Positions 637 through 36,162 of a DNA stretch of 64,000 bases are shown one piece after another. Made by a program: the position numbers and the translations under genes. This DNA is from a virus (Duplodnaviria > Heunggongvirae > Uroviricota > Caudoviricetes), in IMG/VR virus record IMGVR_UViG_3300042544_003430. One strand, given 5' to 3'. Below the pieces are notes generated by a model. That model did not search any database. It was given only the letters and a program-made list of their open reading frames with translations, and was not told the origin of the DNA. The number at the start of each line of letters is the position of its first letter. Within the stretch, counting starts at the first letter, position 1.

Positions 637-641
637 CTAAT

Positions 642-956
642 ATGAACAACCAAACACCAACTCAAGACACTTACATGGGAAGATCAGTTACCAAGAGAGT
701 AACCATCCCAGCCCAGGAAGGCGACTTCCAAACCTACCGCATGGCGGAGGACATCCTCGAAGGCCAAGGTCATCGCATCGGCAGCATGTGTTCACCTGAG
801 CCAACCGGCTTTGCTCCAGCAGAGGAGTTCGAGTACATCGCAAAGATGAGAAACATCTCTCCATCTGAGAGACAACTACTTCACGGGGTCATAGCCAGAA
901 AAGGCGGGGACTTCAGAAACGGCGACCTTGAAATTATTTACTTCCAAACCAAATAA
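642..956 (+). CDS. hypothetical protein (104 aa)
   Basis: ORF downstream of motif A. Confidence 0.45.
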   Translation: MNNQTPTQDTYMGRSVTKRVTIPAQEGDFQTYRMAEDILEGQGHRIGSMCSPEPTGFAPAEEFEYIAKMRNISPSERQLLHGVIARKGGDFRNGDLEIIYFQTK

Positions 957-965
957 TTTAAGACC

Positions 966-1223
966 ATGAGCAACTCAATTTTAAAAGTCATCTTAGGGGT
1001 AACCATCTTCTTCTTCATCTTAGTCGTCTTCACAGCCTGCGAAAAGCAAGCTCAATCCTCAACCATCAAAGGCCACAACATCGAAGTCGAATTCCTCTTC
1101 GAGCAAGACTCAGTCAAGGTCTACAGATTCTATGATGGTTCATACCACTACTTCACCACCAGAGGCGAGACCATGAGCACAAAGACTACAGGCAAAACCT
1201 CCCACCAGGAGAACATCAAATAA
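966..1223 (+). CDS. small membrane protein (N-terminal TM helix)
   Basis: Hydrophobic stretch ILKVILGVTIFFFILVVFTA near the N-terminus. Confidence 0.4.
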   Translation: MSNSILKVILGVTIFFFILVVFTACEKQAQSSTIKGHNIEVEFLFEQDSVKVYRFYDGSYHYFTTRGETMSTKTTGKTSHQENIK

Positions 1224-1616
1224 AGACATTGTGTGTGTTGTTAAACTTAGGTCCCTCCGGGGACCTTTGTTGTGGAGTAGGGGCTAGTAAAAGGACCCCT
1301 CCAGGGTCTGTGTGTAATAGAGAGGGCCCTCCAGGGAGTGGAGGGGGACCTAATTAGGGGTCCTATTAGGGGGTTAAGGGCCCCTTATATAAGGGGTACC
1401 TTGGAGGGGGTCCTGTAACGCTGAGGGGACCCCTACAGGGGAGATTCAAGGGGGGGCCTCACGTAGGGGGTCTGTTGGTGGCAGGTCCAGACGCTCAGCG
1501 AAGTCCAATTGGATTTCCAGGTAGTCCACTTGGGATTCTTCATAGCTTTCCTAGTCTTTCCTGGTCTTTCCTGGTTCTCCACCCTAATCTCCTTCCACAG
1601 TAGAATATATAGGCAC
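1224..1616. repeat. GC-rich island with clustered GGNCC/GGGNCCC palindromes and hairpins
   Basis: Contains aGGTCCCtccgGGGACCt and CCCCTTATATAAGGGG (perfect palindrome) plus many GGGACC, GGTCCC and GGGCCC copies in an otherwise AT-rich genome. Intergenic, upstream of a family gene. Confidence 0.5.
1603..1613 (+). promoter_or_regulatory. motif B (GAATATATAGG) 4 nt upstream of ATG 1617
   Basis: TATA-like GGATATATA(A/G)G motif immediately before several start codons. Confidence 0.4.
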
Positions 1617-2417
1617 ATGAAGCACATCCTAGCCTTTCCCCTATTTGAATCCGTGTCCTTGACTCAAGACCAGAAAGTCTTTCTGGAAATGTGTATGGAG
1701 AACACCAATCTCAATTCCAAGTTTGTCCAAGACCCTGCAACAGGCAAGGTGACAACTCTGGGCAAATTCGATGCCCAGTACTATTACGAATCAAGACCAA
1801 ACTCCGATAAGCAGAAGATCAGGGATCTGTTTAACTCCATTCCCTTTGGAGTAGCAGAAGGGAACTTCTCAGTCAGAGGGATGTACTTGGACGCTATGGT
1901 CAATTTCCCATCTTCAGTAGAAGGAACTTTGTCCCTCAGCAGGAACTCCCTGCTAACCTTGGAGGGAATACCTAAGATGATCTATAAGGATTTGAGTCTT
2001 GAAGACAATCACCTCATCTCTCTAGAAGGCATGGAAGAGACAGAAGTTAGAGGAACCATCTGGTTTGCAGACAACTGGATCAGAGGTCTCTGGTTGAGAG
2101 AAGATCTGACCAGAGCCAAAGCCATTGGCACTTGGGTTCCAATCTATCTGGACATCCTCTCAGGAGAGACCTCGTTCAGTGGGATTCCAAATCCCAACGA
2201 GCAGGAAGAGGCAAAGGCATTCATCATGGAGAAGAAGACGACAAAGGCTCAGATGGAAGAAGCCATCAGGGTGGCACCAGCAGAGATGACTGTGGCTCTC
2301 AGCAGAAAGCGGACTATGCCTCAGGAGATGCAAGATCTACTTCCGACACTGAATGTTCCTGAAGGATTCTGGGATGCTCCTGATCTCATGGGGGATCTGG
2401 AGGGAGTAGGACTGTAG
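1617..2417 (+). CDS. MKH/VGL family protein with leucine-rich-repeat-like segment, C-terminal DLEGVGL
   Basis: Start moved to in-frame ATG at 1617 (MKHILAFPLFES), which matches the paralog N-termini. Repeats of the form LxxLEGxP. C-terminus is ...MGDLEGVGL. Confidence 0.55.
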   Translation: MKHILAFPLFESVSLTQDQKVFLEMCMENTNLNSKFVQDPATGKVTTLGKFDAQYYYESRPNSDKQKIRDLFNSIPFGVAEGNFSVRGMYLDAMVNFPSSVEGTLSLSRNSLLTLEGIPKMIYKDLSLEDNHLISLEGMEETEVRGTIWFADNWIRGLWLREDLTRAKAIGTWVPIYLDILSGETSFSGIPNPNEQEEAKAFIMEKKTTKAQMEEAIRVAPAEMTVALSRKRTMPQEMQDLLPTLNVPEGFWDAPDLMGDLEGVGL

Positions 2418-2436
2418 ATGTTTCCGTACCAGTGAG

Positions 2437-2446
2437 GGATATATAA
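2437..2446 (+). promoter_or_regulatory. motif B (GGATATATAA) upstream of 2465
   Basis: gggatatataaacc 18 nt before ATG. Confidence 0.4.
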
Positions 2447-2464
2447 ACCAAAATTTAACACCCA

Positions 2465-3076
2465 ATGGCAACACTAAAAGAATTCTTAACTATGAGAGAG
2501 AACATGGAAATCCAAGCAATTGAGGTTCCTGGTCTTGAACTGCCTGCTCAGACTTCCGAGCCTGTAGTAGTAGGATCAGGAGTGCCTAAACCAAAGACTC
2601 TGTCATCAGAGATCATCTCGGCTTTAGAAGCAAGACTCAAAGATGAATACACAGCTCACTACACATACCGTAACGCAGCCAACTGGTGCAAGAACATGAA
2701 CTATAAGGCAGCAGCAGCCTACTTCGAAGGCGAAGCAGCAGAGGAGTTAGAACACGCAGCTGGACTTCAGGATTACATGACCCAGTGGAACTGTTTACCA
2801 CAGATCCCACCTGTAACTGTGCCTAACGAGTTTACCTCTCTTGTGCATATCATAGGACATGCCTACACTATCGAGTATGATCTGCTTCAGAAGTACTCTG
2901 CACTTCAAAGGGCCTTTGATGCTGCTCATCCTGCTACATTCAATTTCATTCAGAAGTATGTAGACATTCAGAATGAGTCTGTTGCTAGCTACTCTGATCT
3001 CCTAAATGCTCTTGAGCTCATTAACATTGATTCCAAGCTAGACATTCTAATCTTCGAAGGAAGATATTTCGGATAA
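2465..3076 (+). CDS. ferritin-like diiron protein
   Basis: YTYRNAANWC...AAYFEGEAAEELEHAAGL and ATFNFIQKYVDIQNES match non-heme ferritin helix B/C signatures (WC...A.EE.EHA..L and ATFNFLQWYV.EQ.EE). Confidence 0.65.
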   Translation: MATLKEFLTMRENMEIQAIEVPGLELPAQTSEPVVVGSGVPKPKTLSSEIISALEARLKDEYTAHYTYRNAANWCKNMNYKAAAAYFEGEAAEELEHAAGLQDYMTQWNCLPQIPPVTVPNEFTSLVHIIGHAYTIEYDLLQKYSALQRAFDAAHPATFNFIQKYVDIQNESVASYSDLLNALELINIDSKLDILIFEGRYFG

Positions 3077-3098
3077 TCTTATAACACAAACACAACAC

Positions 3099-3134
3099 GA
3101 AGGTGTCTCTACTAGGGGCACCTTCTTTGTGTGT
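3099..3134 (+). terminator. intrinsic terminator-like hairpin plus T-run
   Basis: GAAGGTG-tctctactagggg-CACCTTC followed by tttgtgtgt, just after the 2465-3076 stop. Confidence 0.45.
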
Positions 3135-3288
3135 CCTAGTCTTATATGTAGAATGGATTGGGGTGCCGCCGGGAGGGGATGTAAACCCAAAATTTGGGCC
3201 TGAGCTTGGGAGGCCCTAGGGGGATCGGGAGCAAAACTCAGGGGCAGGGCCCAGCGCGCTTTAAAGCACATGATTGACATTGCCTGCA
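3135..3288. repeat. second GC-rich island upstream of a family gene
   Basis: Local G/C runs (ggggtgccgccgggagggg, gggccctaggggg, gggcagggcccagcgcgc), unlike the flanking AT-rich sequence. Confidence 0.4.
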
Positions 3289-3300
3289 GGGATATATAAG
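3289..3300 (+). promoter_or_regulatory. motif B (GGGATATATAAG) 3 nt upstream of ATG 3304
   Basis: Same motif as upstream of 4145, 5041 and 34171. Confidence 0.45.
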
Positions 3301-3303
3301 CGA

Positions 3304-4131
3304 ATGAAGCACTTGCAGACATATAGCATCTTTGAATCCAAGACGGTACTGACTGAAGACCAGGAGACGTTCTTGTCTCTCTTCGTCGAACCTCTTGAGA
3401 ATTCGAAGGGGATGCCTGGGACTTGGTCCGTCAACCCAAAAACCGGCTTGGTTGACGTCAATGGAAACTTTGAGTGCCCACAAAGGGGATTGAAGGACTT
3501 TAAGGGAATCTCCTTTGGCCATGTGAGTGGAGCCTTTGACTGCGATCGAAACGAACTTGTCAGCTTGAAGGGTGCACCTCAGTTGGTGAGAGATTTCTCC
3601 TGCGATCGAAATGACCTTGTCAGTCTCGAGGGAGCACCTCAGTTTGTCAGGGGAGGCTTCTACTGCAACACCAATAGGCTGAAGAACTTAAAAGGTGGCC
3701 CGGTAGAAGTGGGAGGGGATTTCTCCTGCGTTGGCAATGACCTCAAGACCTTGGAGGGAAGTCCAAGAACGGTGGGAGGGGATTTCTACTGCTATTCAAA
3801 TTCAACTTCTCTTATCTCTTTAGCAGGGGCTCCAGAAACAATCGGTGGGACTTTTCACTGCGACTGGTTTGAACTTTCCAACTGGGGGGTTCCTGGCCTG
3901 CTGGAGACCATCAAGAAGGTCAACCCCAAAGCTCAGAAGATGATTTTGGACCTCCTGACTCCTGAGAAAATACAGCAGACGATTGACAGAGAGCCTGAGA
4001 AGATGGCTGTTGAATTAAAGGGGGTTTGGAAGACCCTGAAGGCGGATCCAAAATATGCAGGGCTAAAATTTCCAGAAGGAATCCAAGGGGATGCAGAGAT
4101 GCTGTCAGACCTGGACGACGTTGGTCTTTAA
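3304..4131 (+). CDS. MKH/VGL family protein with about 7 BspA-like leucine-rich repeats, C-terminal DLDDVGL
   Basis: Start set at the MKHLQTYSIFES ATG. Clear 22-aa tandem repeats of the form FxCxxNxLxSLEGAPxxVxGD. Ends ...LSDLDDVGL. Confidence 0.6.
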   Translation: MKHLQTYSIFESKTVLTEDQETFLSLFVEPLENSKGMPGTWSVNPKTGLVDVNGNFECPQRGLKDFKGISFGHVSGAFDCDRNELVSLKGAPQLVRDFSCDRNDLVSLEGAPQFVRGGFYCNTNRLKNLKGGPVEVGGDFSCVGNDLKTLEGSPRTVGGDFYCYSNSTSLISLAGAPETIGGTFHCDWFELSNWGVPGLLETIKKVNPKAQKMILDLLTPEKIQQTIDREPEKMAVELKGVWKTLKADPKYAGLKFPEGIQGDAEMLSDLDDVGL

Positions 4132-4142
4132 GGATATATAAG
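4132..4142 (+). promoter_or_regulatory. motif B (GGATATATAAG) upstream of 4145
   Basis: aaggatatataagacATG. Confidence 0.45.
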
Positions 4143-4144
4143 AC

Positions 4145-5029
4145 ATGAAGCACCTACAAACTTATCGTCGATTTGAATCTCAGCATGCCCTGAATGAAGG
4201 GGATGAATATCGCAAGATGAACATGGACTACCTCTTGAACAAATTTACTCGAGTTCCAAACAACGGGAAGTTGTACAACCCTTCGGAGGAAGACTTTGCA
4301 GATCTGCCTTGGTATCAAGCCTTGAAGGGGGCATTTCCAGATTTCAAACTGGAGAGGGTCAGAAAGAAAGGGAATGGCTACTCTTGGTTCTTCCCTGGGC
4401 CAAAACCCAAACCTCAGGCTTTCTACGAGGTTTTCAGAGAAGGTGACAGAGACTCCCCCTCTGAAGAGCCGGCCAAGATTGTATTCAACAACGATTTAAT
4501 GACTTCATCTCAGACGTTCACAATTTTACTCAACGATAAAGAGTCTTGGAATGAGCTCTTTAAGCTGCTCTATTTTGCCCAGTTTGAAGGAAAAATATCA
4601 GGACCTACTTGGAGGGGATTAAAACACATTATGGAACTCTTCTCTTCGGATTTGGAGTCTTTTTACAAGACCGGAAATCTGGGAATAGTTGGAGTGAAAA
4701 AGGATTGCAACCCTTATGGAGGACACTACGAGTCCTCAGTTGATTTTCTGAAGAACCTTCCTTATGGCATCTTTGATGATCTGAAGGCTGGATTTGTCAA
4801 GAAGATGAAAGAAGATCCTGCGGAGATTCAGTATGCAATTTCTCAGTGTCAACTTCCGAAAGGAACAGCAGAGACCGTATTTGGCACAGCTAGACTCTAC
4901 CCAGAAAATGAGGTGCTGAACTTCTACAATCTGATGAAGCAAGAAGGTTATGTTCCACCGGCCGGATTTGACGAAGAAACTGGGGAAATTTCAGATATAC
5001 ACAAATCTCTAGGGGACATCGGTCTGTAG
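4145..5029 (+). CDS. MKH/VGL family protein (C-terminal ...LGDIGL)
   Basis: N-terminus MKHLQTYRRFES, C-terminus SLGDIGL, paralogous to neighbours. Confidence 0.5.
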   Translation: MKHLQTYRRFESQHALNEGDEYRKMNMDYLLNKFTRVPNNGKLYNPSEEDFADLPWYQALKGAFPDFKLERVRKKGNGYSWFFPGPKPKPQAFYEVFREGDRDSPSEEPAKIVFNNDLMTSSQTFTILLNDKESWNELFKLLYFAQFEGKISGPTWRGLKHIMELFSSDLESFYKTGNLGIVGVKKDCNPYGGHYESSVDFLKNLPYGIFDDLKAGFVKKMKEDPAEIQYAISQCQLPKGTAETVFGTARLYPENEVLNFYNLMKQEGYVPPAGFDEETGEISDIHKSLGDIGL

Positions 5030-5040: not shown

Positions 5041-5619
5041 ATGAAGCACATAAAACTATTTGAAGACTACTCAGACGAAGATTTAGCAGGACTAATGTCC
5101 GATCTAGATGGGGTTGGTCTTATGAATAAAGTAATTGTTAGCTTCGGGGAAAAAATTCCAATTCCTCAAGAGGTGACCCATCCATCTTGGTGGGCAGAGC
5201 CTTGGGGGAAATTTGCCATCGTGGAGATTTACACTCCAGAGAAAGGTCCAAAGGCAGAACAACTGGCTTTCGAAAAAATTAAAAAGGGAGACTTCACTCA
5301 AGATTTATCGAAATTAGATACTGATGCTTACAAGAACAGAATTTCCAACATTCTGAAGTTTTTTAGTTCGGAGAGAATTCAGAAGGAAGCTCAAGAATCT
5401 CGGGACGTGGTGGAATTCAAAACTCGAATTCACGAAAAGTCGGGACAGATCCTATTTAACGAATGGGAAGGTATAGTCGAGAAATATCTCGAAGGAAAAT
5501 CTGAAGATTATGCGAAAGAATTTTTCAACACGCTTTGGAAATCCACCCCCAAATCAGCCAAGCAAGAGATTGCCGGATCCACAGCAATAAAAGTTTTGCA
5601 AACCGAAGTAAATAAATGA
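5041..5619 (+). CDS. MKH/VGL family protein (N-terminal MKHIKLFEDYSDE + DLDGVGL)
   Basis: First 40 nt identical to the next gene. DLDGVGL motif at residues 21-27. Confidence 0.5.
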   Translation: MKHIKLFEDYSDEDLAGLMSDLDGVGLMNKVIVSFGEKIPIPQEVTHPSWWAEPWGKFAIVEIYTPEKGPKAEQLAFEKIKKGDFTQDLSKLDTDAYKNRISNILKFFSSERIQKEAQESRDVVEFKTRIHEKSGQILFNEWEGIVEKYLEGKSEDYAKEFFNTLWKSTPKSAKQEIAGSTAIKVLQTEVNK

Positions 5620-6188
5620 AGCACATAAAACTATTTGAAGACTACTCAGACGAAGAAATCAAGTCCCTCATGGGGGACCTTGCCGAGGTTGGTCTGGGAA
5701 AGAAATGGAGGGTTGTTGGATCAATATCCACAGTTACCCCAGAAGTCAACTACTATAGAAACTGGGAAGAACAAGTCCATGAGGTTTTCATTGTGGAAGT
5801 TGCTGCAGATTCAGAGAAGACGGCATATTTAGAGGCCTTTGAAAAACTTAAATCTGGAGACTTCACTCAGAAACTTTCAGATGAAATGGAAAAATGGAAT
5901 AACGTTCTGAATAAAATTCCAGAGGTGGGAAAAATTCTTTCCAAAGACAACATCATCAAAGCTGCTAATGGAAAGGCAAATCAGCAGCCAATGGAGAGGA
6001 AGGACATTACAGGAAATCCAATCTATGACGGAAAAATTAGATGGGTCATGACTGTTGATCTTGTGGGTCCGACTGAAGAGGCAATTCTAAATAAGATAAA
6101 GTCCATGACAGGAGGTGTTGTTAGCCCAGAGATGGAGGAATTTGTTAACGAAAATGTGGGTTGGAACTTAAGAGCAGAAGAAATATGA
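5616..6188 (+). CDS. MKH/VGL family protein, tandem paralog of 5041
   Basis: ATGA start/stop overlap. MKHIKLFEDYSDEEIKSLMGDLAEVGL. Shared FEK(I/L)K(K/S)GDFTQ block. Confidence 0.5.
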   Translation: MKHIKLFEDYSDEEIKSLMGDLAEVGLGKKWRVVGSISTVTPEVNYYRNWEEQVHEVFIVEVAADSEKTAYLEAFEKLKSGDFTQKLSDEMEKWNNVLNKIPEVGKILSKDNIIKAANGKANQQPMERKDITGNPIYDGKIRWVMTVDLVGPTEEAILNKIKSMTGGVVSPEMEEFVNENVGWNLRAEEI

Positions 6189-6940: not shown

Positions 6941-6941
6941 A

Positions 6942-6950
6942 CCGTATATT
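6942..6950 (+). promoter_or_regulatory. motif A upstream of 6954
   Basis: aaCCGTATATTctaatgaatATG. Confidence 0.5.
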
Positions 6951-6953
6951 CTA

Positions 6954-7481
6954 ATGAATATGACAACTCAAGAATTTATAAAATTTTGCAAACATCAACA
7001 CGATGTAGAATGCAACCAAAAGTATGGAAAGATCCATCCTTATTCCTTTCACCTTGATCTAGTAGCTACCCAAGCTAAAAAGTTCGAAGAACTCCTAGGT
7101 GATTTTGATCTAGACCTAGATAAAACAATTATGGCATCATGCTACGGTCACGATCTGATCGAAGATGCCAGAGTTACCTACAACGATATCAAAGAAATGG
7201 TGGGAGAGAAGATCGCAGATATTATCTACTGTTGCACCGAAGAGAAAGGTAAAAACAGAGATCAAAGACACAGTGAGAAGTATTTTGCCGAACTGAAAGA
7301 AAACGAACTTGCAATCTTCGTTAAACTTTGCGACATCACTGCCAATGTTAAATATTCTCTTTTAACAGACTCTGGAATGTTTAAAAAATACAGAAAAGAA
7401 TTTCCTAAAGTTAAAGAACATCTTTACGTAGAGAAATTCAAACCCCTGTTTGACCACCTAGAATCAATCCTTTCAATCTAA
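6954..7481 (+). CDS. HD-domain phosphohydrolase-like protein
   Basis: H..H.D / FHLDLV / YGHDLIED residues spaced as in an HD metal-binding site. 175 aa. Confidence 0.45.
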   Translation: MNMTTQEFIKFCKHQHDVECNQKYGKIHPYSFHLDLVATQAKKFEELLGDFDLDLDKTIMASCYGHDLIEDARVTYNDIKEMVGEKIADIIYCCTEEKGKNRDQRHSEKYFAELKENELAIFVKLCDITANVKYSLLTDSGMFKKYRKEFPKVKEHLYVEKFKPLFDHLESILSI

Positions 7482-11643: not shown

Positions 11644-14600
11644 ATGGCTCAAAAGTATTTGAGCAAAGCTTTGGCTTTCGCTTTAACCTTGTTTGCAACA
11701 CAAGGAAATCTTCATGCAGCATGCGGGAATCTCACACCGAGTTTCAGTAATGCATCCAACAAAACCTGTGGTATACCTCAGGTAATTACACTTACCAATA
11801 CTTCCACTGGAAACAGTCGAAATGTAGCCACCTACAAGTGGTATGTGGGTACCACACTGCTGAGCACACAAGTTGGCAAATCCACCCAAAAATACACCAT
11901 CAACACTGCAGGTAGCTATACCTTCAAGTTGGTGGCGATAGATACGGGTAAGGTGGGCTGTAAAGACAGCACAAGCACTACCATTACCATTTCGGCATCT
12001 GTTCCGAGAATTTTGGATGGCAATAGAGTAAATACCTATTCTCCCATTTGGGAAAATTGTATAAGTTCATTGGGGGTTCCTGACACCTTTGGTATAAATA
12101 TCAAACCTCAGGATTCATTGCGAAATTACACCATAGTTTGGGGGGATGGCACCGGTAATTCTACTGGCACTTTACTGCTTAGCAGCCAATCCCTCTACCA
12201 TAAGTATAATTCACTAGGACAATTTACTTTATTAATCATCGGAACAAAGGGAAGTTGCACTGATACCCTTCGAGGTGTGGTGTCGAATGAAAGAAATCCT
12301 GTGGCTGGAATTGTGGGTCCACCAACAGGAACCAATGCAGGTTGTGTGCCCATTCGCATGCGTTTTATCAATAACTCTTCCTTAAGCTCACCTAGCACCA
12401 CTTTTACCTGGGATTTTGGCAATGGCGAAACCATAGTAAGGGGATTCAATACCCACAAAGACACTTTATTTTATACCTATAAGCGCTTTTTGTGTAATGG
12501 CATCGTGAAACTTACTCAAACCAATAATTGTGGTTCGAGTTTTGCCACCTGGAACCCAATCATGGCTTCCTCTAAGGATACTGCCATTATTGCGCCGACC
12601 AATCCGACCAACTGCGATCTTGCTGTACCTTTTACGTTTAACAATACCTCTCAAAATCGTTTTTGTAGCACGCCAAACAATAAGAAATACCTCTGGGTTT
12701 GGGGCGACGGAACCAATTCTGGTTGGAGTACTTCTTCTGCTTCGCAGTCTAAAACCTACAGCAAGCGCGGTGTGTACCAGGTCTTGCTGATTGATTCAAA
12801 TGGCTGCGGTAAAGATACTGCAAGGTATACCTTGCGTATCGATAGCATGCCTACCATTTCTGCAGGCCCAGCGTCGGCTGCAGGATGCTCACCTTTGGTG
12901 GTAAACTTCAGAGACAACAGCATAAATGCAACTTCTAGAAATTGGGATTTTGGATATGCAACACCAACAAGCAGTGCGCAAAACCCAACCCATACCTATC
13001 AAACAGGTGGTACATATAGAGCAGTGCTGACAGTAGCCAACAATTGTGGATCATTAAAAGATACTGTCCTTATTACTGTCAAACAAAAAGTAAAGGCAAA
13101 CTTCAATACACCGCTTACTGGCTGTGCTCCATTAACACAGAAATGGACCAATACATCTGTCAAAGGATTGGCAGGAACCCCTACATATTTCTGGGATTTT
13201 GGGGACGGAACAACTTCTACCCAGGTGAATCCTCCAGATAAAACTTACTCTACGTTAGGGACATATACCATTACACTCATTGCTACAGACTCATGCGGTA
13301 AGGATACCATTAAAAAGACGTTTACCGTCCGTGGTAAGCCCTCTGCTACAATTACTTTGTTATCTTCAAGCCGGTGTGTGGGCAGCACTTTAGATATTCG
13401 CTTTGTAACCTCACCCGTAAATACAGCTTCAGTTATCTGGGGTGATGGAACCAATGGCAGCAGTTATTTCGGATTGGGTGGTTCAGTTGACCGCACGGTT
13501 TCCAGAAAATACGACAGTCTGCGCACCTACAGATTTGGGGTAGTTATGGTGGATCCAAGCGGTTGCCGAGACACCAATTACCTAAACATTGCAATGGATC
13601 CAAGGCCTACGATGAACTATACCTACACCACAACCAATGGTTGTGGTCCTTTGGATGTTACATTTACCAATACCAGTGCGCACAATGGAGGGGGTAACAT
13701 CAACCAAATGAAGTTCTTATGGAACTTTAGTAATGGTATATTGGCTTACAGCAAAGATACTGCAGCTAGGTTCTTGCCGTTTAAAACAAGAGACTCTATT
13801 TATCCCGTTAAATTAATTGGAACAAACGCCTTTGGCTGCAGAGATTCCATTACCAAAACGGTTCGAGTTTATCCAAAACCATTGAGTAAATTTAGTATTA
13901 GTGAAAAGGATGGTTGTGCACCTTTGGATATTACTACTACGAACAATTCTACTCCATATGACACGGGTTCTATAAACATAATGAAGTTTATATGGGACTT
14001 TGGCAACGGCAGGAAAGCGTTTGGTAAAGATACTGCTGCTCGATTCTTAGCCAGTAAAACAAAAGATACTGTGTATACTGTTAGTCTGATATCTATTTCT
14101 GAACATGGTTGCCGAGATACCAGTTCAACCACAGTGCGTATTTATCCAAAACCTAAAGCCTTATTTACCAGAAGTAAAACTGAAGGTTGCAAACCACTCG
14201 GGGTTACCTATGTCAACCAAAGTGTACCCTACGATACCGGCAATATATCAATAATGAGTTTTGCTTGGGATTTAGGAAATAGAATTACCTCATTCGCTAC
14301 AGAACCTGTGGGTATCTATAATGATGCGATAAACAAAGATACTACTTATAAGGTACGTTTGATTGCCACTAGTGAGCACGGATGCAAGGATACTGCAAAT
14401 TCCACTGTACTGTTACATCCGAATCCGGTGATTAAATTTGATATGAGCCGCACCAATGGCTGCGGTCCATTGCCTGTGAGCTTCTCGAACAAGAGCATCA
14501 ACGGCGATGCATTTACTTGGGAGTTTGGCGTATATGGAACTGATACCGCAAAGAGTCCTAGTAAGGTATTCTATGGCCGCGATATTTTTGACTCAGTAGT

Positions 14601-16737
14601 AGTGGTGAAGCTTAGCGCGATGAGCAAATTTGGCTGCTTGAGTGATACGCTAAAAGACGAAGTGACGGTTTTTGGATTACCTATTGCCAACTATCTAGTT
14701 TCAACAGATACCTTCTGTTTCCCTGACCTGACGCAGTTTTTGAACCAAAGTTTGGCTTCCTACAACTACACTTGGGATTTGGGCGATGGCACTGTAACAG
14801 GAACTACAAACCCCAAACATTTCTTCAAGAAAAGCTCAAGTCCATTTAGTGATACTACCTATTTCATCAAACTTGTTGCTACAAGCCCTTACGGATGTAA
14901 GGACACCGCAAACGGCAGTATGACCGTATTGCCTTACCCTATTCCAAAATTCAGTGTTGACAATCCTGCGGGTTGTGCGTCACACACAGTGAAGTTCAAC
15001 AACCAGTCGGTAAACGTGTTGAATTACCTGTGGGTATTTGGAGATGGATATACATCAACCGATGTGAACCCTACCCATACCTTTATAAATACCGGTGCGA
15101 ATGATACGGCGTATCAGGTTGTTCTTTATACCTACTCTTTGGATTGTGTAGACTCTACTAGTATTTGGATACCAGTTTACAAGCCCTCGTATTCATTCTT
15201 CAGAACGGACCGGGTAAATCCATGTGATGCTGGATATTTTAAATTCCAGAGCTTTGGCGAAAATGCGCCAATTGTGAAGTACAATTTTGGTGATGGTAGC
15301 ACATCAACTTTTCCCAACCTAACGCATTTATTCCCAACCTCACCTTACACCGATACAAGCTTCATCGTTACACTATACACCACAAGCAATCGCGGTTGCA
15401 CAGACAGCTTTAAACGCACAGTTACGCTCCCACAGCGACTTTCTATCGGAATGAAAGACACCAGTTATGCGCTATGTGCTCCGACGGTAATTCAGTTTAC
15501 AAACTACACAAGGGGTGCACGCACATATATTTGGGACTTTGGAGATAATGGAGGAAGTTCTCAGAAGAACCCAATTTATGAATACCAAAAACCGGGCTTA
15601 TACGCATATAAGTTGTTTGCCTTTGACGCAAATGGGTGTATTGACAGTCAGGTTTCAAACGGCACTGTTCGTGTGGATGTGAGTCCTAAAGCGGATTTTG
15701 ACTTTAGTCCTGGTAAAGGCCGCATGCCAAATGACAACCGTATTTTCTTTACTGACAAGAGCCGCAGTGTGATACCACTGACCTATTTCTGGGATTTCTC
15801 GGATCCAGCGGGTATACCTGCAACGAGTACGATTCAAAATGCAACCCACGATTTTAGCGACTCTGGAGACTATAAAATCTGTTTGACGGTAGATAATGGG
15901 GGTTGTAAGAATATATTTTGCAATTTTGTACGCATCGATCCGGCATTTCCAACCCCAGATTTCTCGGTGGGTGGGGATTCGGGTTGCCCACCTCTTACCG
16001 TGCAGTTTACCAACCTTTCTGTGAACTCTGACCGCTATATATGGTTCTTTGGTGACGGTGAAAGAAGCGAGGACAAAGACCCAGTCCATACCTATAAGTA
16101 CAGCGGATATTACGACGTGATTTTGATCGCAAAAGGTCCAGGGGGTGAGGGTAAAACGGAGAAGAAGCAGTTCATAAAAGTATTGAATGCACCATTCACG
16201 TATTTCAATCTCACGCCCTCTATATTGTACCTTCCTGATGCCAAATTCACAACTCGAAACCTGACTACTGGAGCTGTAGGATATCAGTGGAATGTGTACA
16301 ACAGCAGCACTAGAAATCGAGTTGGGAATAGCCTTTTGGTGAATCCCTATTTCCAAGTAAACGATACGGGGCATTATGATGTGGAATTGATTTCAGTAAG
16401 CAGTCAGGTCTGTTATGATACCCTATTGTTGCCCAAGCCCATCTACGTGAATCCACGTGGCATATTGCATGTACCGGATGCCTTCACACCTACCAATGAT
16501 GAACGCAACGATGTGTTTAAACCAAGCGCGATAAACGTGCAAAAGGATTTCTATCTCTTCCAGATCTATAACAGATGGGGTGAAATCGTATTCGAAACCA
16601 AAGACCCCGATGAGGGTTGGGACGGCCGTAAAAAGGGCAAAATATGCCAAAGTGGAGTCTATGTATATAAAATCAATGCAAGACTCTTCAGCGGGGATGA
16701 TATTTCAGCGGATGGTGTGGTTCACTTGATTCGATAG
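11644..16737 (+). CDS. giant secreted PKD-repeat protein with Bacteroidota type-IX secretion (gliding-motility) C-terminal domain
   Basis: Signal peptide. Many repeats of the form W(D/V)FGDG..S....P.H.Y...G.Y.V.L (PKD-like). C-terminus VPDAFTPTNDERNDVFKP...YNRWGEIVF...DPDEGWDGRKKG...GVYVYKI resembles the T9SS type-B CTD. Confidence 0.7.
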   Translation: MAQKYLSKALAFALTLFATQGNLHAACGNLTPSFSNASNKTCGIPQVITLTNTSTGNSRNVATYKWYVGTTLLSTQVGKSTQKYTINTAGSYTFKLVAIDTGKVGCKDSTSTTITISASVPRILDGNRVNTYSPIWENCISSLGVPDTFGINIKPQDSLRNYTIVWGDGTGNSTGTLLLSSQSLYHKYNSLGQFTLLIIGTKGSCTDTLRGVVSNERNPVAGIVGPPTGTNAGCVPIRMRFINNSSLSSPSTTFTWDFGNGETIVRGFNTHKDTLFYTYKRFLCNGIVKLTQTNNCGSSFATWNPIMASSKDTAIIAPTNPTNCDLAVPFTFNNTSQNRFCSTPNNKKYLWVWGDGTNSGWSTSSASQSKTYSKRGVYQVLLIDSNGCGKDTARYTLRIDSMPTISAGPASAAGCSPLVVNFRDNSINATSRNWDFGYATPTSSAQNPTHTYQTGGTYRAVLTVANNCGSLKDTVLITVKQKVKANFNTPLTGCAPLTQKWTNTSVKGLAGTPTYFWDFGDGTTSTQVNPPDKTYSTLGTYTITLIATDSCGKDTIKKTFTVRGKPSATITLLSSSRCVGSTLDIRFVTSPVNTASVIWGDGTNGSSYFGLGGSVDRTVSRKYDSLRTYRFGVVMVDPSGCRDTNYLNIAMDPRPTMNYTYTTTNGCGPLDVTFTNTSAHNGGGNINQMKFLWNFSNGILAYSKDTAARFLPFKTRDSIYPVKLIGTNAFGCRDSITKTVRVYPKPLSKFSISEKDGCAPLDITTTNNSTPYDTGSINIMKFIWDFGNGRKAFGKDTAARFLASKTKDTVYTVSLISISEHGCRDTSSTTVRIYPKPKALFTRSKTEGCKPLGVTYVNQSVPYDTGNISIMSFAWDLGNRITSFATEPVGIYNDAINKDTTYKVRLIATSEHGCKDTANSTVLLHPNPVIKFDMSRTNGCGPLPVSFSNKSINGDAFTWEFGVYGTDTAKSPSKVFYGRDIFDSVVVVKLSAMSKFGCLSDTLKDEVTVFGLPIANYLVSTDTFCFPDLTQFLNQSLASYNYTWDLGDGTVTGTTNPKHFFKKSSSPFSDTTYFIKLVATSPYGCKDTANGSMTVLPYPIPKFSVDNPAGCASHTVKFNNQSVNVLNYLWVFGDGYTSTDVNPTHTFINTGANDTAYQVVLYTYSLDCVDSTSIWIPVYKPSYSFFRTDRVNPCDAGYFKFQSFGENAPIVKYNFGDGSTSTFPNLTHLFPTSPYTDTSFIVTLYTTSNRGCTDSFKRTVTLPQRLSIGMKDTSYALCAPTVIQFTNYTRGARTYIWDFGDNGGSSQKNPIYEYQKPGLYAYKLFAFDANGCIDSQVSNGTVRVDVSPKADFDFSPGKGRMPNDNRIFFTDKSRSVIPLTYFWDFSDPAGIPATSTIQNATHDFSDSGDYKICLTVDNGGCKNIFCNFVRIDPAFPTPDFSVGGDSGCPPLTVQFTNLSVNSDRYIWFFGDGERSEDKDPVHTYKYSGYYDVILIAKGPGGEGKTEKKQFIKVLNAPFTYFNLTPSILYLPDAKFTTRNLTTGAVGYQWNVYNSSTRNRVGNSLLVNPYFQVNDTGHYDVELISVSSQVCYDTLLLPKPIYVNPRGILHVPDAFTPTNDERNDVFKPSAINVQKDFYLFQIYNRWGEIVFETKDPDEGWDGRKKGKICQSGVYVYKINARLFSGDDISADGVVHLIR

Positions 16738-16803: not shown

Positions 16804-17154
16804 ATGGCAATAAAATACAAAGAGTTTAAAAAGAAATTACAAAACGAACCCCTAACCGAAGAGGAATTAACCATTATTCAGGAGACAGAAGATTATATTG
16901 ACTCTGAAATTCTAAACCAATTTCCGAAGAGCAATTACGGAGAGGTTCTAATTGATTTGACTTATCCGTCTTTTACCTACTCTCATCAAAGAGGTTCTTT
17001 GATGGACTCAAATTCATATAGAAGATCCTTGATGAGATCCGAATTAGAAAAAAGATACAAATCAGCCGGATGGAAGATAGAGGTTAAATTCGACGATGGA
17101 CTGGATGGACCTAATATGTCCGGTCCAGATTATTGGATATTAAAAGGAAAGTAG
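16804..17154 (+). CDS. hypothetical protein (116 aa)
   Basis: ORF downstream of motif A. Confidence 0.4.
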   Translation: MAIKYKEFKKKLQNEPLTEEELTIIQETEDYIDSEILNQFPKSNYGEVLIDLTYPSFTYSHQRGSLMDSNSYRRSLMRSELEKRYKSAGWKIEVKFDDGLDGPNMSGPDYWILKGK

Positions 17155-17156
17155 GA

Positions 17157-17165
17157 CCGTATATT
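17157..17165 (+). promoter_or_regulatory. motif A upstream of 17181
   Basis: ggaCCGTATATTtataaaaataacaatATG. Its position argues that the Prs-like gene starts at 17181, not 17133. Confidence 0.5.
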
Positions 17166-17180
17166 TATAAAAATAACAAT

Positions 17181-18083
17181 ATGTTACAATTAAATTTAGC
17201 AGACTCAGATAAGTCACAGATCAAATTTAAACCATCTGCATTTCCAGACGGCCAGCAATCAATCACTTTAGCTCTGTCCACAATCTCAGATCTAGAAATA
17301 TCTTGCACAATCAAGTCCAGATTAAATTCTTTCAGGGATTTAGAACTCATAGTCTGCGCAGCAGCTGCATTGAGAGAAGCTGGAATGGAAAGAATTCACC
17401 TTTATATTCCATACTGTCTAGGCGGAAGATCTGACATCAAATTTGAAGAAGGTGGCTTAAACTACATCAAGAGTGTAATTGCACCTATCATCAATTTACA
17501 AAAATTTACTTCTGTTACCGTCATGGATGCTCACTCGATAGCTCTAGAAAATTGCATTGATAATTTGAAAAAGCTAGACAATTCTTATCTTGCAAAATGG
17601 GCAATCAAGGATCTATCTTCAGAAGGAGGAGATTTCAAATTGGTCTCTCCTGATGCTGGAGCACTAAAGAAAATATTCTCAACAGCTAAATCTATCGGAT
17701 ATAAAGGAGAAATAATAGTTGCTGAAAAAGTTAGAGATTTATCTACCGGAAAAATTATTCACACCAAGGTACCTATAAACGTTTATGATGCAGATAAAGA
17801 TTTTATCATTATAGATGATATCTGTGACGGTGGGAGAACATTCATAGAAATCGCCAAGGCTATAGAAGAAATGAGATCTTTAAGTTCAGTGGTTCATCCA
17901 GATAAGCACGGAAAAAATTACCTTATCGTAACTCACGGCATCTTCAGCGCAGGATTTGAAGAACTTAGTAAATATTTTGATAGAATTTATACCACCAATT
18001 CTATCTCCGAAATAAACGAGTCTGAAAATTACAAAGGTGCTGAATTTGATAAACAATTTGTTAAACAACTAAACGTATTCTAA
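17181..18083 (+). CDS. ribose-phosphate pyrophosphokinase (PRPP synthetase) family protein
   Basis: PRPP-binding loop IIIDDICDGGRTF, overall Prs-like layout. Start trimmed to the ATG after motif A. Confidence 0.6.
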   Translation: MLQLNLADSDKSQIKFKPSAFPDGQQSITLALSTISDLEISCTIKSRLNSFRDLELIVCAAAALREAGMERIHLYIPYCLGGRSDIKFEEGGLNYIKSVIAPIINLQKFTSVTVMDAHSIALENCIDNLKKLDNSYLAKWAIKDLSSEGGDFKLVSPDAGALKKIFSTAKSIGYKGEIIVAEKVRDLSTGKIIHTKVPINVYDADKDFIIIDDICDGGRTFIEIAKAIEEMRSLSSVVHPDKHGKNYLIVTHGIFSAGFEELSKYFDRIYTTNSISEINESENYKGAEFDKQFVKQLNVF

Positions 18084-23401: not shown

Positions 23402-24931
23402 ATGTTTAAATGTAATTCACTATTCTACACAGACGGCTACAAAATTGGCCACAAAAGAATGCTAGCACCAGGAACAACTCGTTTATACGGAACCTGGATT
23501 CCACGAAGTATTAAACACGCTCCAAAAGGAGTTAAAAAAATCGTATCGTTTGGCCAGCAACTAGCTGTTAAATGGTTACACGATGAATTCGAAGAAAATT
23601 TCTTCAAGCTTCCTTTAGAAGAAGCAATGGAATTCGGAAATGATATGGCAATGTATCTCGGCCTCGAGTATGATGCTTCTCATTTCGAAGCTCTCCACAA
23701 ATTAGGTTACTTGCCTATCAAAGTTAAATCTTTACCAGAAGGTATCGAAACTCTTCCAAATGTTCCACACATGACCTTCATTAATACCGTGGATGGATTT
23801 GCTTGGTTAACCCTTTATTTGGAAACCATCATCTCTTCATTAGCTTGGAAGCCTTCAACATCAGCTACAATCGCTTTACAGTACAAAAGAAACCTGATCG
23901 AATGGGTAAGAAAAACAGACCCTAAAAACATCTGGTTAGTTCCTTTCCTAGCTCACGACTTCTCGGCTAGAGGTTTGTCTCCTTGGGACATGTTAGCAAG
24001 CGGTTTAGGACACGCTACATCATTCAGAGGTTCAGACACAATAGTTTGTATCCCAGCAGCTCGATACTTCTACAACGAGCCTAAAAACGAGGTCTGCATC
24101 AATTCTGTAAACGCTTCAGAACACTCAGTATCTACCACCAAAATTTTCACAGTCGGCGAACAACAAATGATAGCAGACTGGTTAAGAGAATTCGACAAAG
24201 GTATCCTTTCAATCGTTTCAGACACATTCGATTTATGGACACTAATCACCAAATATTTACCTGCCAACAAAGAGGCTATCATGGCCAGAGACGGTAAATT
24301 GGTTATCAGACCTGACTCAGGAGACCCAGTAGATATTATTTGCGGATTAGAAAATAAAGTTCTTGAGGAAGGAGTGGGATATAAAGAAGAATACAAAGAA
24401 AGCCCAGAATACAAAGGAGTTATCGAATTACTTTGGGACATCTTCGGAGGTACAATCAACGAAGAAGGTTACAAAGTACTTGATCCTCACATCGGAGCAA
24501 TCTACGGGGACTCTATTACCTTGGACAGACAAATCCAAATCTACGAAAGATTAGCAGCTAAAGGATTTGCAACTACCAATATCGTTTTAGGTATCGGTTC
24601 TTACACCTACCAAATGAACACCAGAGACACCTTAGGCTTCGCAGCTAAAGGAGCATGGTTCGAAGTAGAAGAAAACGGTACTAAAGTAGGCTACGACATC
24701 TACAAAGATCCTATCACAGACGATGGAACTAAGAAATCCTTAAAAGGACTTATTAGAGTCGATGAAGTTTCAGTAACTTCCGAGGAAACTGGAATTACTT
24801 ATACTAAGTATGAAGTAAAAACCCAATGTACCCCAGAACAAGAAGAAGGAGGCATCTTACAAACCATCTACGAAAATGGTAAATTCTACAATCAAACTAC
24901 ATTAACTGAAGTTAGATCAAAATTAAACTAA
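23402..24931 (+). CDS. nicotinamide phosphoribosyltransferase (NAMPT/NadV) family protein
   Basis: FYTDGYKIGHKRM, SFRGSDT and VIRPDSGDP match NAMPT signature regions. 509 aa. Confidence 0.85.
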   Translation: MFKCNSLFYTDGYKIGHKRMLAPGTTRLYGTWIPRSIKHAPKGVKKIVSFGQQLAVKWLHDEFEENFFKLPLEEAMEFGNDMAMYLGLEYDASHFEALHKLGYLPIKVKSLPEGIETLPNVPHMTFINTVDGFAWLTLYLETIISSLAWKPSTSATIALQYKRNLIEWVRKTDPKNIWLVPFLAHDFSARGLSPWDMLASGLGHATSFRGSDTIVCIPAARYFYNEPKNEVCINSVNASEHSVSTTKIFTVGEQQMIADWLREFDKGILSIVSDTFDLWTLITKYLPANKEAIMARDGKLVIRPDSGDPVDIICGLENKVLEEGVGYKEEYKESPEYKGVIELLWDIFGGTINEEGYKVLDPHIGAIYGDSITLDRQIQIYERLAAKGFATTNIVLGIGSYTYQMNTRDTLGFAAKGAWFEVEENGTKVGYDIYKDPITDDGTKKSLKGLIRVDEVSVTSEETGITYTKYEVKTQCTPEQEEGGILQTIYENGKFYNQTTLTEVRSKLN

Positions 24932-32144: not shown

Positions 32145-33086
32145 ATGGCAAAAAAATCAGATAGCGTTTACCAAAACGAAATTACCCCAACAGAAATTCT
32201 AACCACAAGATCAGCCATTCCGGCAGACTATCACACGGATGATTTCACAGAAAATTTTCTAGGAGAAATCTTTGATCTAAAGAGTGGAAAGTACTACAGT
32301 CAGAATGCTAGATCTAGATACTACCCAAAGCAAGAGGACAAGCATCTTTGTCCAGGTCACTGGCAAGGCTACAGATGGGCAATTCAGAATTTGACTGAAC
32401 CTGGAGATTGGGTTTTTGATCCAACTTGCGGAACTGGAACCACTCTAGTTGAGGCTTATAATCACGGTAGAAATTCAGCAGGAGTTGAATTAGAATTTCC
32501 TAAAATCGCTAGGGCAAACATAGATCACCAAAGAGCTAGAACAGATGTATCTGCAAATCTAATGCAAGGTGATGCTAGAGAAACTGCTAAGAATTTGGAT
32601 TCATTGGGAATTAAAAAAGGTCAACTAAGTCTGGTTATTAACGGAACACCATATCCAAAAATCAGTGGTAAATCTTCGGATGCTCCGGAAAGAAAGAAAC
32701 TTGTTAAGAAAGTAGAAGGTGAGGAAGAAGCTCCAGAAATGGTTGATAACACTTTTGATTATCAAAATCCTAACAACATCGGTTTAACAAAAGGAACTGA
32801 ATATTGGGGATTGGTTAATTCGATGTATACCCAAGCCATTGAGTATTTAAAACCAGGTGGATATTTCGTTATCTTAATTAAGGACATGATTCAGAACAAG
32901 AAGCCATACCTTTTAAGCAGCATGATTGCCAACGAAGTTCTAGAGAACAATCCTGATGTTGAATACCACGGTTTGTATCTTCACAGACACATTCCAGAAA
33001 CAATGTTTATGAGAACTTACCCTAAAATGTATCCGGGTGTTCCAGTTCCTTCTTACCAAGCAGGAATAGTTCTAAGAAAAAAATAA
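32145..33086 (+). CDS. SAM-dependent DNA (N6-adenine/N4-cytosine) methyltransferase-like protein
   Basis: VFDPTCGTGTTLVEAYNHGRNSAGVELE matches the DPF.GSGTT...G.E motif of the N-4/N-6 DNA methylase family. Confidence 0.5.
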   Translation: MAKKSDSVYQNEITPTEILTTRSAIPADYHTDDFTENFLGEIFDLKSGKYYSQNARSRYYPKQEDKHLCPGHWQGYRWAIQNLTEPGDWVFDPTCGTGTTLVEAYNHGRNSAGVELEFPKIARANIDHQRARTDVSANLMQGDARETAKNLDSLGIKKGQLSLVINGTPYPKISGKSSDAPERKKLVKKVEGEEEAPEMVDNTFDYQNPNNIGLTKGTEYWGLVNSMYTQAIEYLKPGGYFVILIKDMIQNKKPYLLSSMIANEVLENNPDVEYHGLYLHRHIPETMFMRTYPKMYPGVPVPSYQAGIVLRKK

Positions 33087-35826: not shown

Positions 35827-36162
35827 ATGAATCAAACAGTAAACCTACTTAAGACCGGATCCGAATATATTTTAGCTCTTCCGAGAGGGAAAAGACTAGA
35901 AAAAGGAGATTTTGCAATAGGGGTGTCCAACTCTTATTCAAAGGTTTCTTCTGTTAAAGAAGGGGATTATTTTGATGCTAGAATTTACTATCTTGAAGAT
36001 GGTAGCTGTCTAGTAAACCCAATTAAAATTGTGGGATTTGAATCCGATATAGATCCAGAGGTTCTAACAAAAATAAAGGAACTTAAAGAAGTTCCTTTGT
36101 ATATCGAGATCGTAGAAAACCAGATCGTTCGTGAATCTGGTAAGATTAAAGTTATTTATTAA
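35827..36162 (+). CDS. hypothetical protein (111 aa)
   Basis: ORF only. Confidence 0.35.
   Translation: MNQTVNLLKTGSEYILALPRGKRLEKGDFAIGVSNSYSKVSSVKEGDYFDARIYYLEDGSCLVNPIKIVGFESDIDPEVLTKIKELKEVPLYIEIVENQIVRESGKIKVIY

Follow-up and report, generated by a model that had tools for sequence, protein, structure and literature searches.

The 64,000-nucleotide (nt) stretch of Caudoviricetes DNA analyzed here (IMG/VR record IMGVR_UViG_3300042544_003430; hereafter the window) contains, at positions 1224-1616, an intergenic island rich in guanine and cytosine (GC), which lies directly upstream of the first of several paralogous genes that we term the MKH...VGL family. This region (island 1) consists of four modules: a terminator (M1), a G-rich hairpin core (M2), tandem repeats (M3), and a promoter-proximal box with a promoter-like element (M4 and motif B). 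We consider it most likely, at a probability of roughly 0.4, that M2 is a structured RNA element that is specified by the sense strand and acts in cis. Such an RNA was not among the roles proposed in a first-pass annotation of this DNA, and we rate it at least as likely as those that were. In total, 72 kb were examined (the window and 8 kb upstream), representing part of a genome of about 400 kb.

The case for a functional element begins with its conservation. Gene 1617-2417, which island 1 precedes, has 16 homologues (53-100% identity), and the contigs on which they reside (their loci are numbered with an L) yield 11 distinct versions of the island 1 region. The region is always situated between a DUF4884 lipoprotein gene (or one to two extra small genes following it) and the homologue of gene 1617-2417, and the junction, AAATAA followed by AGACATT, is identical in all relatives, whichever gene is located upstream. 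Extra small genes at this place occur in L076 (3218-3454), L077 (5369-5614), L080 (5464-5691), L083 (1986-2557), L086 (2325-2567) and L090 (546-788), with none in the window, as if small genes were gained or lost exactly at the border of the island. In the distant relatives L080, L086, L088 and L090, the three flanking genes match the window at 45-60% of 4-fold degenerate sites, as against an identity of 82-85% for M2, 90-94% for its sub-core (1316-1396) and mostly 100% for two other blocks; across the eight relatives compared, the sub-core is 90-97.5% identical to the window. By this measure, the core of island 1 is under purifying selection that is stronger than the constraint on neighboring genes. 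The first-pass annotation had made the significance of the island depend on its persistence in close relatives, and it is indeed present in every relative found, at the same position.

Nor does the island form part of an unrecognized coding sequence, the other objection foreseen at that stage. All six frames contain stops, the longest stretch open under the standard code spans 37-55 codons, and there is no 3-nt periodicity (variable columns by phase, 21/16/14), with the window and L083 differing from the other versions by 1-nt indels. Recoding of TAG or TGA was rejected as well: the sole long frame on the + strand would require read-through of two invariant TAGs, additional TAGs or TGAs appear in some relatives, and TAG terminates the adjacent gene 1617-2417. 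This frame (frame 0, 1229-1500) reads as a Gly/Pro-rich product, KGPPGDGGGPN-stop-GSY-stop-GVKGPLYKGYLGGGPGTLRGPL, in which the two TAGs are invariant in 11 of 11 relatives; because we estimate that composition alone supplies about 1.3 TAG and 1.3 TGA per 82 codons, the frame is unremarkable. An element that is non-coding and nearly unchanged throughout a small clade is thus expected to be a functional control element. It is clade-specific and fixed in position, being confined to a narrow clade of uncultivated marine jumbo phages.

Island 1 is also distinct in composition. Previously described as GC-rich and densely palindromic, it proved to be both: its GC content is 0.534 (with a maximum of 0.605 in 200-nt windows), GGNCC occurs 13 times compared to 3.8 +/- 1.9 when the island is dinucleotide-shuffled (none of 1000 shuffles attained a count of 13), a 3.4-fold excess above local composition, and there are 18 perfect 5-bp inverted repeats with spacers of 0-8 nt where shuffles yield 5.0 (P = 0.003). 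When GGNCC sites are mapped over the window, as the first-pass annotation had advised, 13 of the 72 fall within the island, as do two of the three GGGNCCC sites, and the two palindromes singled out then are located at 1249-1266 (AGGTCCC-tccg-GGGACCT) and 1381-1396 (the perfect 16-bp CCCCTTATATAAGGGG). That the window as a whole sums to 72 sites, close to the approximately 75 estimated from base composition, led us to reject GGNCC avoidance or a restriction decoy. The characterization of the genome as AT-rich applies to the window overall (GC 0.37), but the block surrounding the island (640-5000) is already at 0.44-0.49, as compared with 0.30-0.38 before 640 and about 0.35 afterwards. Homologous loci in relatives are likewise at 0.41-0.44, and the other intergenic gaps of the window have GC contents of 0.25-0.38. 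The + strand of the island is G-biased, with a GC skew of up to +0.34. Six of the eight 25-nt windows in the 64 kb with absolute G4Hunter scores of at least 1.5 lie in island 1 or in a second GC-rich stretch (island 2, about 3135-3290), the maximum being 1.72, and the four long-loop G-quadruplex (G4) motifs in the 64 kb are all on the + strand, three in island 1 and one in island 2. No canonical G4 motif (loops of at most 7 nt) was found in either island, and the hairpins of the islands compete with possible quadruplexes for the same G runs.

Transcription is indicated to reach the island by its first module. M1 has the sequence hallmarks of an intrinsic (Rho-independent) terminator, namely a G/C hairpin after the stop codon of the upstream gene, a T-rich tract, and compensatory changes in the stem: five stem pairs have changed on both sides with pairing kept, and there are three fully compensated versions (AGGTCCC/GGGACCT, GGGACTCC/GGAGTCY and, in L090, GGGTTCC/GGAACC). 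Such compensation implies that transcription of the + strand extends as far as the island. Because its tail is just moderately T-rich, the terminator is probably leaky.

The module that follows, M2, is composed of about 40% G and 18% C, and contains 10 runs of at least four Gs, 11 of the 13 GGNCC sites of the island, six to eight short G/C hairpins, and roughly a dozen AGGGG motifs spaced irregularly at 10-19 nt. Its aligned length is nearly constant, at 245-253 nt in all relatives. Invariant blocks of up to about 50 nt (AATAGAAAGGGCCCTCCAGG, TGGAGGGGGACCTAATTAGGGGTCCTA, AAGGGCCCCT, AACGCTGAGGGG.CCCCT, GGGGGGCCTCACGTAGGGG and ACGCT.AGCG) alternate with segments that differ at half of their positions and yet maintain their exact length. 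In the sub-core, all 13 pairs of the two adjacent hairpins (1327-1345 and 1346-1363) are invariant, and the 5-nt loop between CCCTCCA and TGGAGGG varies in sequence but not in length, being all purine except in one variant (GGGTG, in L076). The variable hairpin that follows (1403-1418) exists in three sequence types, each forming a 4-bp stem in the register counted (UUGG/CYGG, UGCA/UGCA and UUAG/UAAG), such that three of its four pairs have changed on both sides. The 3' domain encloses AGGGGACCCCT (1424-1434), GGGGGGGCCTCACGTAGGGGG (1451-1470) and a variable segment (1471-1491), and the helix that closes it (1419-1425/1494-1500) is retained in nine of the 11 sequences.

Several of these features point to an RNA. 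A GC-rich island among AT-rich intergenic gaps is a classical signature of structured RNAs, and both this setting and the conservation of M2 and its sub-core beyond that of 4-fold sites support this reading, as do the compensatory variants of M1. Pairs of the G.U type occur on the + strand at 1351.1358 and 1457.1466, and at 1385/1392 a U-A pair is replaced by U-G in five relatives; because such pairs would turn into A.C mismatches if read from the opposite strand or as a DNA palindrome, they favor an RNA from the + strand. The asymmetry between strands (the GC skew and the purine loops) is consistent with this, as are the variable segments of fixed length and the three alternative stems displayed around one G5 loop, and the long invariant blocks, in combination with the irregular AGGGG spacing, fit a fold better than they do a regular array of DNA sites. 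Island 2, whose hairpin is the shared minimum-energy fold of most of its homologues, provides additional support. Under this reading, M1 would close the upstream operon of small genes, and polymerases passing the leaky terminator would copy M2 in the sense direction. The transcript would then fold into a compact, G-rich, multi-hairpin domain that, acting in cis, could block and silence read-through transcripts and might also be a platform for an AGGGG-binding protein, while M4 and its RATATATAR element would start transcription of the first MKH gene almost at the ATG, such that this gene would be expressed solely from its own promoter.

Other observations weigh against an RNA. Although 95% of cells in the pair count are paired, 25 of the 38 proposed pairs never vary among the 11 sequences; one 4-bp helix covaries, in two sequences that possibly reflect one event, and column-shuffled alignments produce as many covarying helices as observed. 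Folding z-scores are modest and not strand-specific (+ strand, -0.9 to -3.2; - strand, -1.8 to -3.9). M2 follows a terminator and precedes a promoter, a position in which transcription should be at its lowest, and our scan found neither a sigma-70-like promoter nor a convincing terminator of its own. A search of Rfam 15 over the 64 kb returned no match at the gathering level (best E = 1.8 for island 1 and 0.15 for island 2, the latter to the terminator hairpin alone), and three diverged relatives gave nothing at E <= 0.5. Moreover, the central base of GGNCC flips between A and T at three sites (1295, 1411 and 1429), with no compensating change in the helices that would use those bases, on which grounds long-range helices through GGNCC centers (1293/1409 and 1409/1427) were rejected; together with the excess of GGNCC, these flips fit the recognition of DNA palindromes better. 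The repeat period of M3 is that of the DNA helix, and an ATTAGGkkTCC-like unit is common to M3 and the center of M2 (ATTAGGGGTCC against ATTAGGTTTCC).

The main rival reading is that the region serves as DNA. M2, with about a dozen AGGGGNCCT- or GGNCC-type sites in both orientations, and M3 could bind many copies of a phage or host protein, forming a nucleoprotein platform that functions as an upstream operator or activating region, or as a replication origin, pac site or partition site. We rate this second to an RNA, as possible though less likely than not. The regulator-binding array and the packaging or replication site of the first-pass annotation, which belong here, remain viable candidates. 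Such a platform would account for the GGNCC excess over local shuffles (13 versus 3.8), the free variation of N at three conserved GGNCC sites, and the exact lengths of all variable segments, including the N5 spacer of CCCTCCA-N5-TGGAGGG, as required of fixed site spacing, as well as for M3 units of helical period that resemble the M2 center, self-complementarity that is equal on both strands, and a location just ahead of a promoter, as is typical of operators and upstream activating sites. But the palindromes differ in sequence, so that a single protein cannot account for all of them; the invariant blocks far exceed the length of a typical site, the motifs are irregularly spaced (10-19 bp), and a bias of G over C with purine-rich spacers is unexpected of symmetric DNA sites. 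Neither is there conserved helical phasing, with M3 setting M2 at 96-222 bp from the promoter. No exact DnaA box or AT-rich unwinding element is present (the best box-like string, TTCTCCACC, matches at 7 of 9 positions by eye), and the proteins scanned over the window and the 8 kb upstream include no ParA/ParM, ParB/ParR or initiator. The ATPase nearest to the island, 7.4 kb upstream, is RecA/KaiC-like and not ParA, which led us to reject a partition system; and no terminase was seen among the open reading frames (ORFs) scanned in the 72 kb. A methyltransferase-like ORF at 32145-33086 is of the N6/N4 type and has no link to GGNCC.

Two further explanations dispense with specific recognition. 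In one, which we view as improbable, the G/C hairpins and the non-template G runs, prone to form G-quadruplexes or R-loops, would stall or terminate polymerases past the leaky terminator without the aid of any factor and thereby insulate the MKH promoter, and the C-rich antisense strand could additionally be a Rho loading site against antisense transcription. A terminator role has been proposed for clusters of hairpins that follow stop codons (PMC8355165). The order of terminator, sense-strand G-run cluster and promoter is common to the two islands although they are not homologous, and it is these islands that hold six of the eight high-scoring G4Hunter windows and all four long-loop G4 motifs, on the + strand. 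A barrier of this kind needs a certain composition and hairpins, however, and not a sequence that is near-invariant across at least 80 nt; moreover, no canonical G4 with loops of at most 7 nt is present, and the other terminator-promoter junctions of the window lack such an island. In the other, which appears very improbable, the island has no function of its own and is a tract of crossover or gene conversion between co-infecting relatives, or a decayed repeat array, Gly/Pro-rich gene or mobile GC cluster. In keeping with exchange, L078 is as close as L076 upstream of the island (93/89% versus 94/92% identity) but much more distant downstream (70% versus 89%), and the variable segments of M2, 5' and 3', are combined differently from one relative to another. 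The center of M2 also resembles degenerate units of 12-15 nt, and one + frame is open if two TAGs are read through. These mosaic relationships imply crossovers in or near the island, as expected of any conserved tract: of the recombination hotspot proposed in the first pass, the shift in flanking relationships and the reassortment of segments hold, whereas nothing shows that the island promotes recombination. Conversion alone cannot explain invariant blocks beside saturated, length-conserved segments in every lineage; a single copy at constant position is not a mobile element; and the open frame, expected by chance at this composition, has extra TAGs and TGAs and 1-nt indels in some relatives and no periodicity.

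That the island might be a relic of mobile DNA, also suggested originally, is not supported by its distribution. It occurs once in the 72 kb, and an nhmmer search with filters off, covering 930 kb, recovered a single copy at each locus and no others; its single copy and constant position thus set it apart from mobile GC clusters, miniature inverted-repeat transposable elements (MITEs) and repetitive extragenic palindromes (REPs). Exact-word scans of the IMG/VR and GTDB genomes revealed no copy, and such scans of IMG/VR, JGI metagenome contigs and GTDB uncovered one true relative, L081; L082, L093 and L094 were discarded as chance matches. No comparable island was present near the ferritin gene of 68 distant, ferritin-bearing jumbo phage loci (L001-L068): in L001, the GC-rich beginning corresponds to a collagen-like gene, and a GC-rich gap downstream of ferritin in L005 (8482-8954, on a 430-kb phage contig) is unrelated and resembles a tRNA cluster, with GGTTCGAATCC-type T-arms. 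Some resemblances to known motifs were dismissed because the relatives do not conserve them: to a protelomerase-type target site, to the direct repeat of Cas13b (GTTGTGGA...AGGGGCTA, 1270-1285), to Chi of E. coli (GTTGGTGG, 1474-1481) and to motif B (TATATAAG, within the 16-bp palindrome, replaced by TATACAGG in five relatives).

The transition from M2 to the MKH gene is far less conserved than M2 in M3, whose units are 10-12 nt long in the window (TCCAATAGGTT-like and CTTTCCTAGT) and 10-13 nt in relatives, except in L090 (34/45 nt). Close relatives differ both in the sequence of the unit and in its copy number, which ranges from 2 to 9.5 and is higher still where an N-gap is spanned. The contigs of L075, L084, L089 and L092 begin, end or have an N-gap within these repeats, which makes the copy numbers lower bounds; the breaks are assembly artefacts and not genome ends. 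The RATATATAR motif at the end of the region occurs 13 times in the window, where 5.6 +/- 2.5 are expected, mostly on the coding strand and 3-22 nt before a start codon, and by this placement it behaves like a promoter element. The location of both islands immediately upstream of such a motif and an MKH...VGL gene, as originally reported, was confirmed, with RATATATAR at 1604-1612 and 3291-3299, in each case 4 nt before the ATG. Within the repeat zone, GATTCTTCATAG (1533-1545) is complementary to the ATGAAG start region (1617-1622) of the downstream gene; it is kept in L076 and L092 (two copies), with CTCCAT in L078 and L083. In T4 late genes, the start codon is masked in the read-through transcript, and by analogy a read-through transcript may mask the start codon of gene 1617-2417 through GATTCTTCATAG. 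At the opposite end of the island, part of the leader (GTGTGTGTTGTT, 1236-1242) is partly complementary (GTGTTGT/ACAACAC) to the AC-rich ACACAAACACAACAC (3083-3098), which precedes the terminator of island 2, such that the pair flanks a cassette comprising gene 1617-2417 and ferritin.

Island 2 repeats the layout of island 1 in a different sequence. Like island 1, it had been described as locally GC-rich, and it is both GC-rich (0.535 over 3101-3300) and G-rich (skew +0.25); the palindromes ascribed to island 1 are a property of that island only, since in island 2 neither GGNCC (4 compared to 2.1 in shuffles, P = 0.15) nor inverted repeats (P = 0.24) are enriched. Its terminator hairpin (3099-3125) is followed by a variable spacer, a G-rich core, a near-invariant box and motif B. 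The three-helix hairpin of the core is the minimum-energy fold in five of seven homologues and contains G.U-rich pairs; 95% of cells are paired, but about 150 of 500 shuffles equal this value for the seven sequences, which again tempers an RNA interpretation. We rejected homology or motif sharing between the islands, as nhmmer gave no match and shared k-mers do not exceed chance. Island 2 is therefore an independent, non-homologous element with the same order of terminator, conserved G-rich core and promoter, and clustered G runs are the sole property common to both. It is possible, though less likely than not, that M2 and, independently, the core of island 2 represent a new class of G-rich multi-hairpin phage RNA (about 110-230 nt) that, produced by read-through or from an unrecognized phage promoter, would sequester a host or phage nucleic-acid-binding protein through AGGGG motifs, or form G-quadruplexes or R-loops that prime replication or gate a switch from early to MKH genes.

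The coordinates of both islands are compiled in Table 1.

Table 1. Features of islands 1 and 2 and the gene served by island 1, in window coordinates.
Feature	Position	Strand	Description	Basis
Leader	1224-1243	+	Invariant GT-rich AGACATTGTGTGTGTTGTT, right after the stop codon of the upstream gene	A1 columns 9-22 invariant, 10 relatives
M1, intrinsic terminator (sequence-based)	1249-1275	+	Hairpin AGGTCCC-TCCG-GGGACCT (1249-1266) and T-rich tail TTTGTTGTG	Terminator scan
M2, conserved G-rich core	1276-1500	+	225 nt	Alignments A1 and A4; excess of GGNCC and inverted repeats; G4Hunter peaks
M2 sub-core	1316-1396	+	CCCTCCA-N5-TGGAGGG (1327-1345), GGACCT-AATTAG-GGGTCC (1346-1363), CCCCTTATATAAGGGG (1381-1396; outer arms 1376-1402)	
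M2 variable hairpin	1403-1418	+	Displays the G5 loop	A4 columns 137-140 with 149-152
M2 3' domain	1419-1500	+	Closed by CGCTGAG (1419-1425)/CTCAGCG (1494-1500)	RNAalifold, pair counts
M3, hypervariable tandem repeats	1502-1575	+	Two AGTCCAaTTGG-type units (1502-1538), three CTTTCCTRGT units (1546-1575)	
M4, promoter-proximal box	1576-1603	+	GTTCTCCACCCTAATC..CAGTAG (also TTCTCCACCCTAATC...)	Kept in window, L076, L077, L078, L083, L092
Motif B, promoter-like	1604-1612	+	AATATATAG (RATATATAR), 4 nt before the ATG at 1617	
First MKH...VGL family gene	1617-2417	+	266 amino acids, served by island 1	Homologues 53-88% identical
Island 2 terminator hairpin	3099-3134	+	GAAGGTGTCTC-TAC-TAGGGGCACCTTC and TTTGTGTGT	
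Island 2 conserved G-rich core	3155-3266	+	Contains a three-helix hairpin of roughly 59 nt (3195-3253)	A3, 7 relatives
Island 2 box and motif B	3272-3299	+	GATTGACATTGCC (3272-3284; two variable positions) and GATATATAA (3291-3299), ahead of the next MKH-family gene (ATG at 3304)	

The genes that the islands precede belong to a run of MKH...VGL paralogues (1617-2417, 3304-4131, 4145-5029, 5041-5619 and 5616-6188) that share an N-terminus of MKH(I/L)xxFxxFE(S/D) and a C-terminus of D(L/I)xxVGL around middles that are unrelated or leucine-rich-repeat-like. Pfam and PHROG gave no match to this family, whose N-terminus we take to be reminiscent of the capsid-targeting sequence of T4 internal proteins, MKTYQEFIAE. 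A second upstream element, CCGTATATTCTAAT, immediately precedes the start codons of small genes where the window is AT-rich (283-300, 627-644 and 6941-6956); its sequence differs from motif B, which suggests two classes of promoters. By eye, genes of the window lack Shine-Dalgarno sequences.

The window looks like a piece of a very large phage with a host of the Bacteroidota type, as indicated by a 1697-amino-acid protein (11644-16737) that carries about ten PKD domains and, at its C-terminus, a CHU_C domain for type IX secretion sorting. The window had no nucleotide or protein matches among 50,697 GenBank phages. Seven metagenome contigs (L069-L075), each from a different sample, contain DNA identical to it; one of the relatives is on a 399,968-bp contig and another derives from a marine metagenome. 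The window also encodes ferritin, a ClpB-like ATPase and a CCA-adding-type enzyme, and no tRNA or tmRNA was found in it. An ORF at 20346-21404 matches PHROG 1211 ("2-aminooxy adenylosuccinate synthetase", PurZ-like; E = 1e-55), a similarity hinting that the phage might substitute 2-aminoadenine for adenine; near it are genes for PRPP synthetase (17133-18083), NAPRTase (23402-24931) and MTHFR (33173-34132). On the - strand, two adjoining ORFs (36159-38139) match the C- and N-terminal halves of the PHROG 1314 HNH-endonuclease family, and to judge from these matches the pair may be one gene that was split or frameshifted.

Knowledge of the non-coding control elements, origins and RNAs of uncultivated jumbo phages of about 400 kb is scant, and our literature searches on islands of this type turned up nothing. 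The element described here has clear module boundaries and heads a diversifying gene family. Should it act as RNA, a further family would join the known phage RNAs; should it act as DNA, it would be among the first candidate origin, packaging or operator sites for such phages. At 225 nt, it is compact, cleanly delimited and easily tested.

Among known systems, island 1 can be placed with the conserved intergenic regulatory or structured elements of phages, but it belongs to no described family. Outside this group, the GC clusters of yeast mitochondria and REP or MITE elements are also GC-rich, palindrome-dense and intergenic in an AT-rich genome; these are short, dispersed and variably present, whereas island 1 is single, fixed in all relatives and under purifying selection. 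E. coli oriC (11 GATC) and P1 pac (seven TGATCA/G hexamers) are clusters of methylatable palindromes, and like them island 1 is a conserved non-coding block of about 250 bp with a palindrome density far above the genomic level (GGNCC, 47 per kb against 0.9 per kb). Unlike them, it is strongly strand-biased, has no linked matching methyltransferase, initiator or terminase, and lacks an unwinding element and DnaA box. The parC site of plasmid R1 (11-bp repeats) and the iterons of origins have a counterpart in M3, with its direct repeats of 10-12 bp adjoining a promoter, but an array at helical period is seen in M3 alone, the spacing in M2 being irregular; the gene downstream encodes a leucine-rich-repeat-like MKH protein rather than ParM/ParR or an initiator, and the copy number ranges from 2 to more than 9. 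A further comparison is with the PeSL cassettes of T4-type phages, which Arbiol and colleagues reportedly described in 2010 as promoter plus stem-loop units flanking variable ORFs. As in these cassettes, a stem-loop terminator and a promoter bracket a region of changing gene content, with zero to two extra genes upstream and different genes downstream; PeSLs, though, are short (tens of nt), multi-copy and AT-rich, whereas the island unit is about 390 nt long, single-copy and built around a GC-rich core of 225 nt. For a structured RNA, the reading that we prefer, the nearest precedents are the RNAs recovered by searches of GC-rich intergenic regions (GC-IGR), which are likewise long, GC-rich relative to their surroundings and conserved beyond neutral sites, and, as a functional analogy, the sponge RNAs CsrB and RsmZ, in which, as proposed for M2, the arms, loops and linkers of successive short hairpins repeat a purine motif (AGGGG/GGA). 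To our knowledge, CsrA is not known in a host of the Bacteroidota type. Compared with known structured RNAs, island 1 is far more skewed in its G content and has no Rfam match, no covariation beyond that of column-shuffled alignments, and no evident promoter or terminator of its own; with these RNAs it shares the potential to form a chain of short hairpins, in a sequence conserved beyond neutral sites of the genes on either side.

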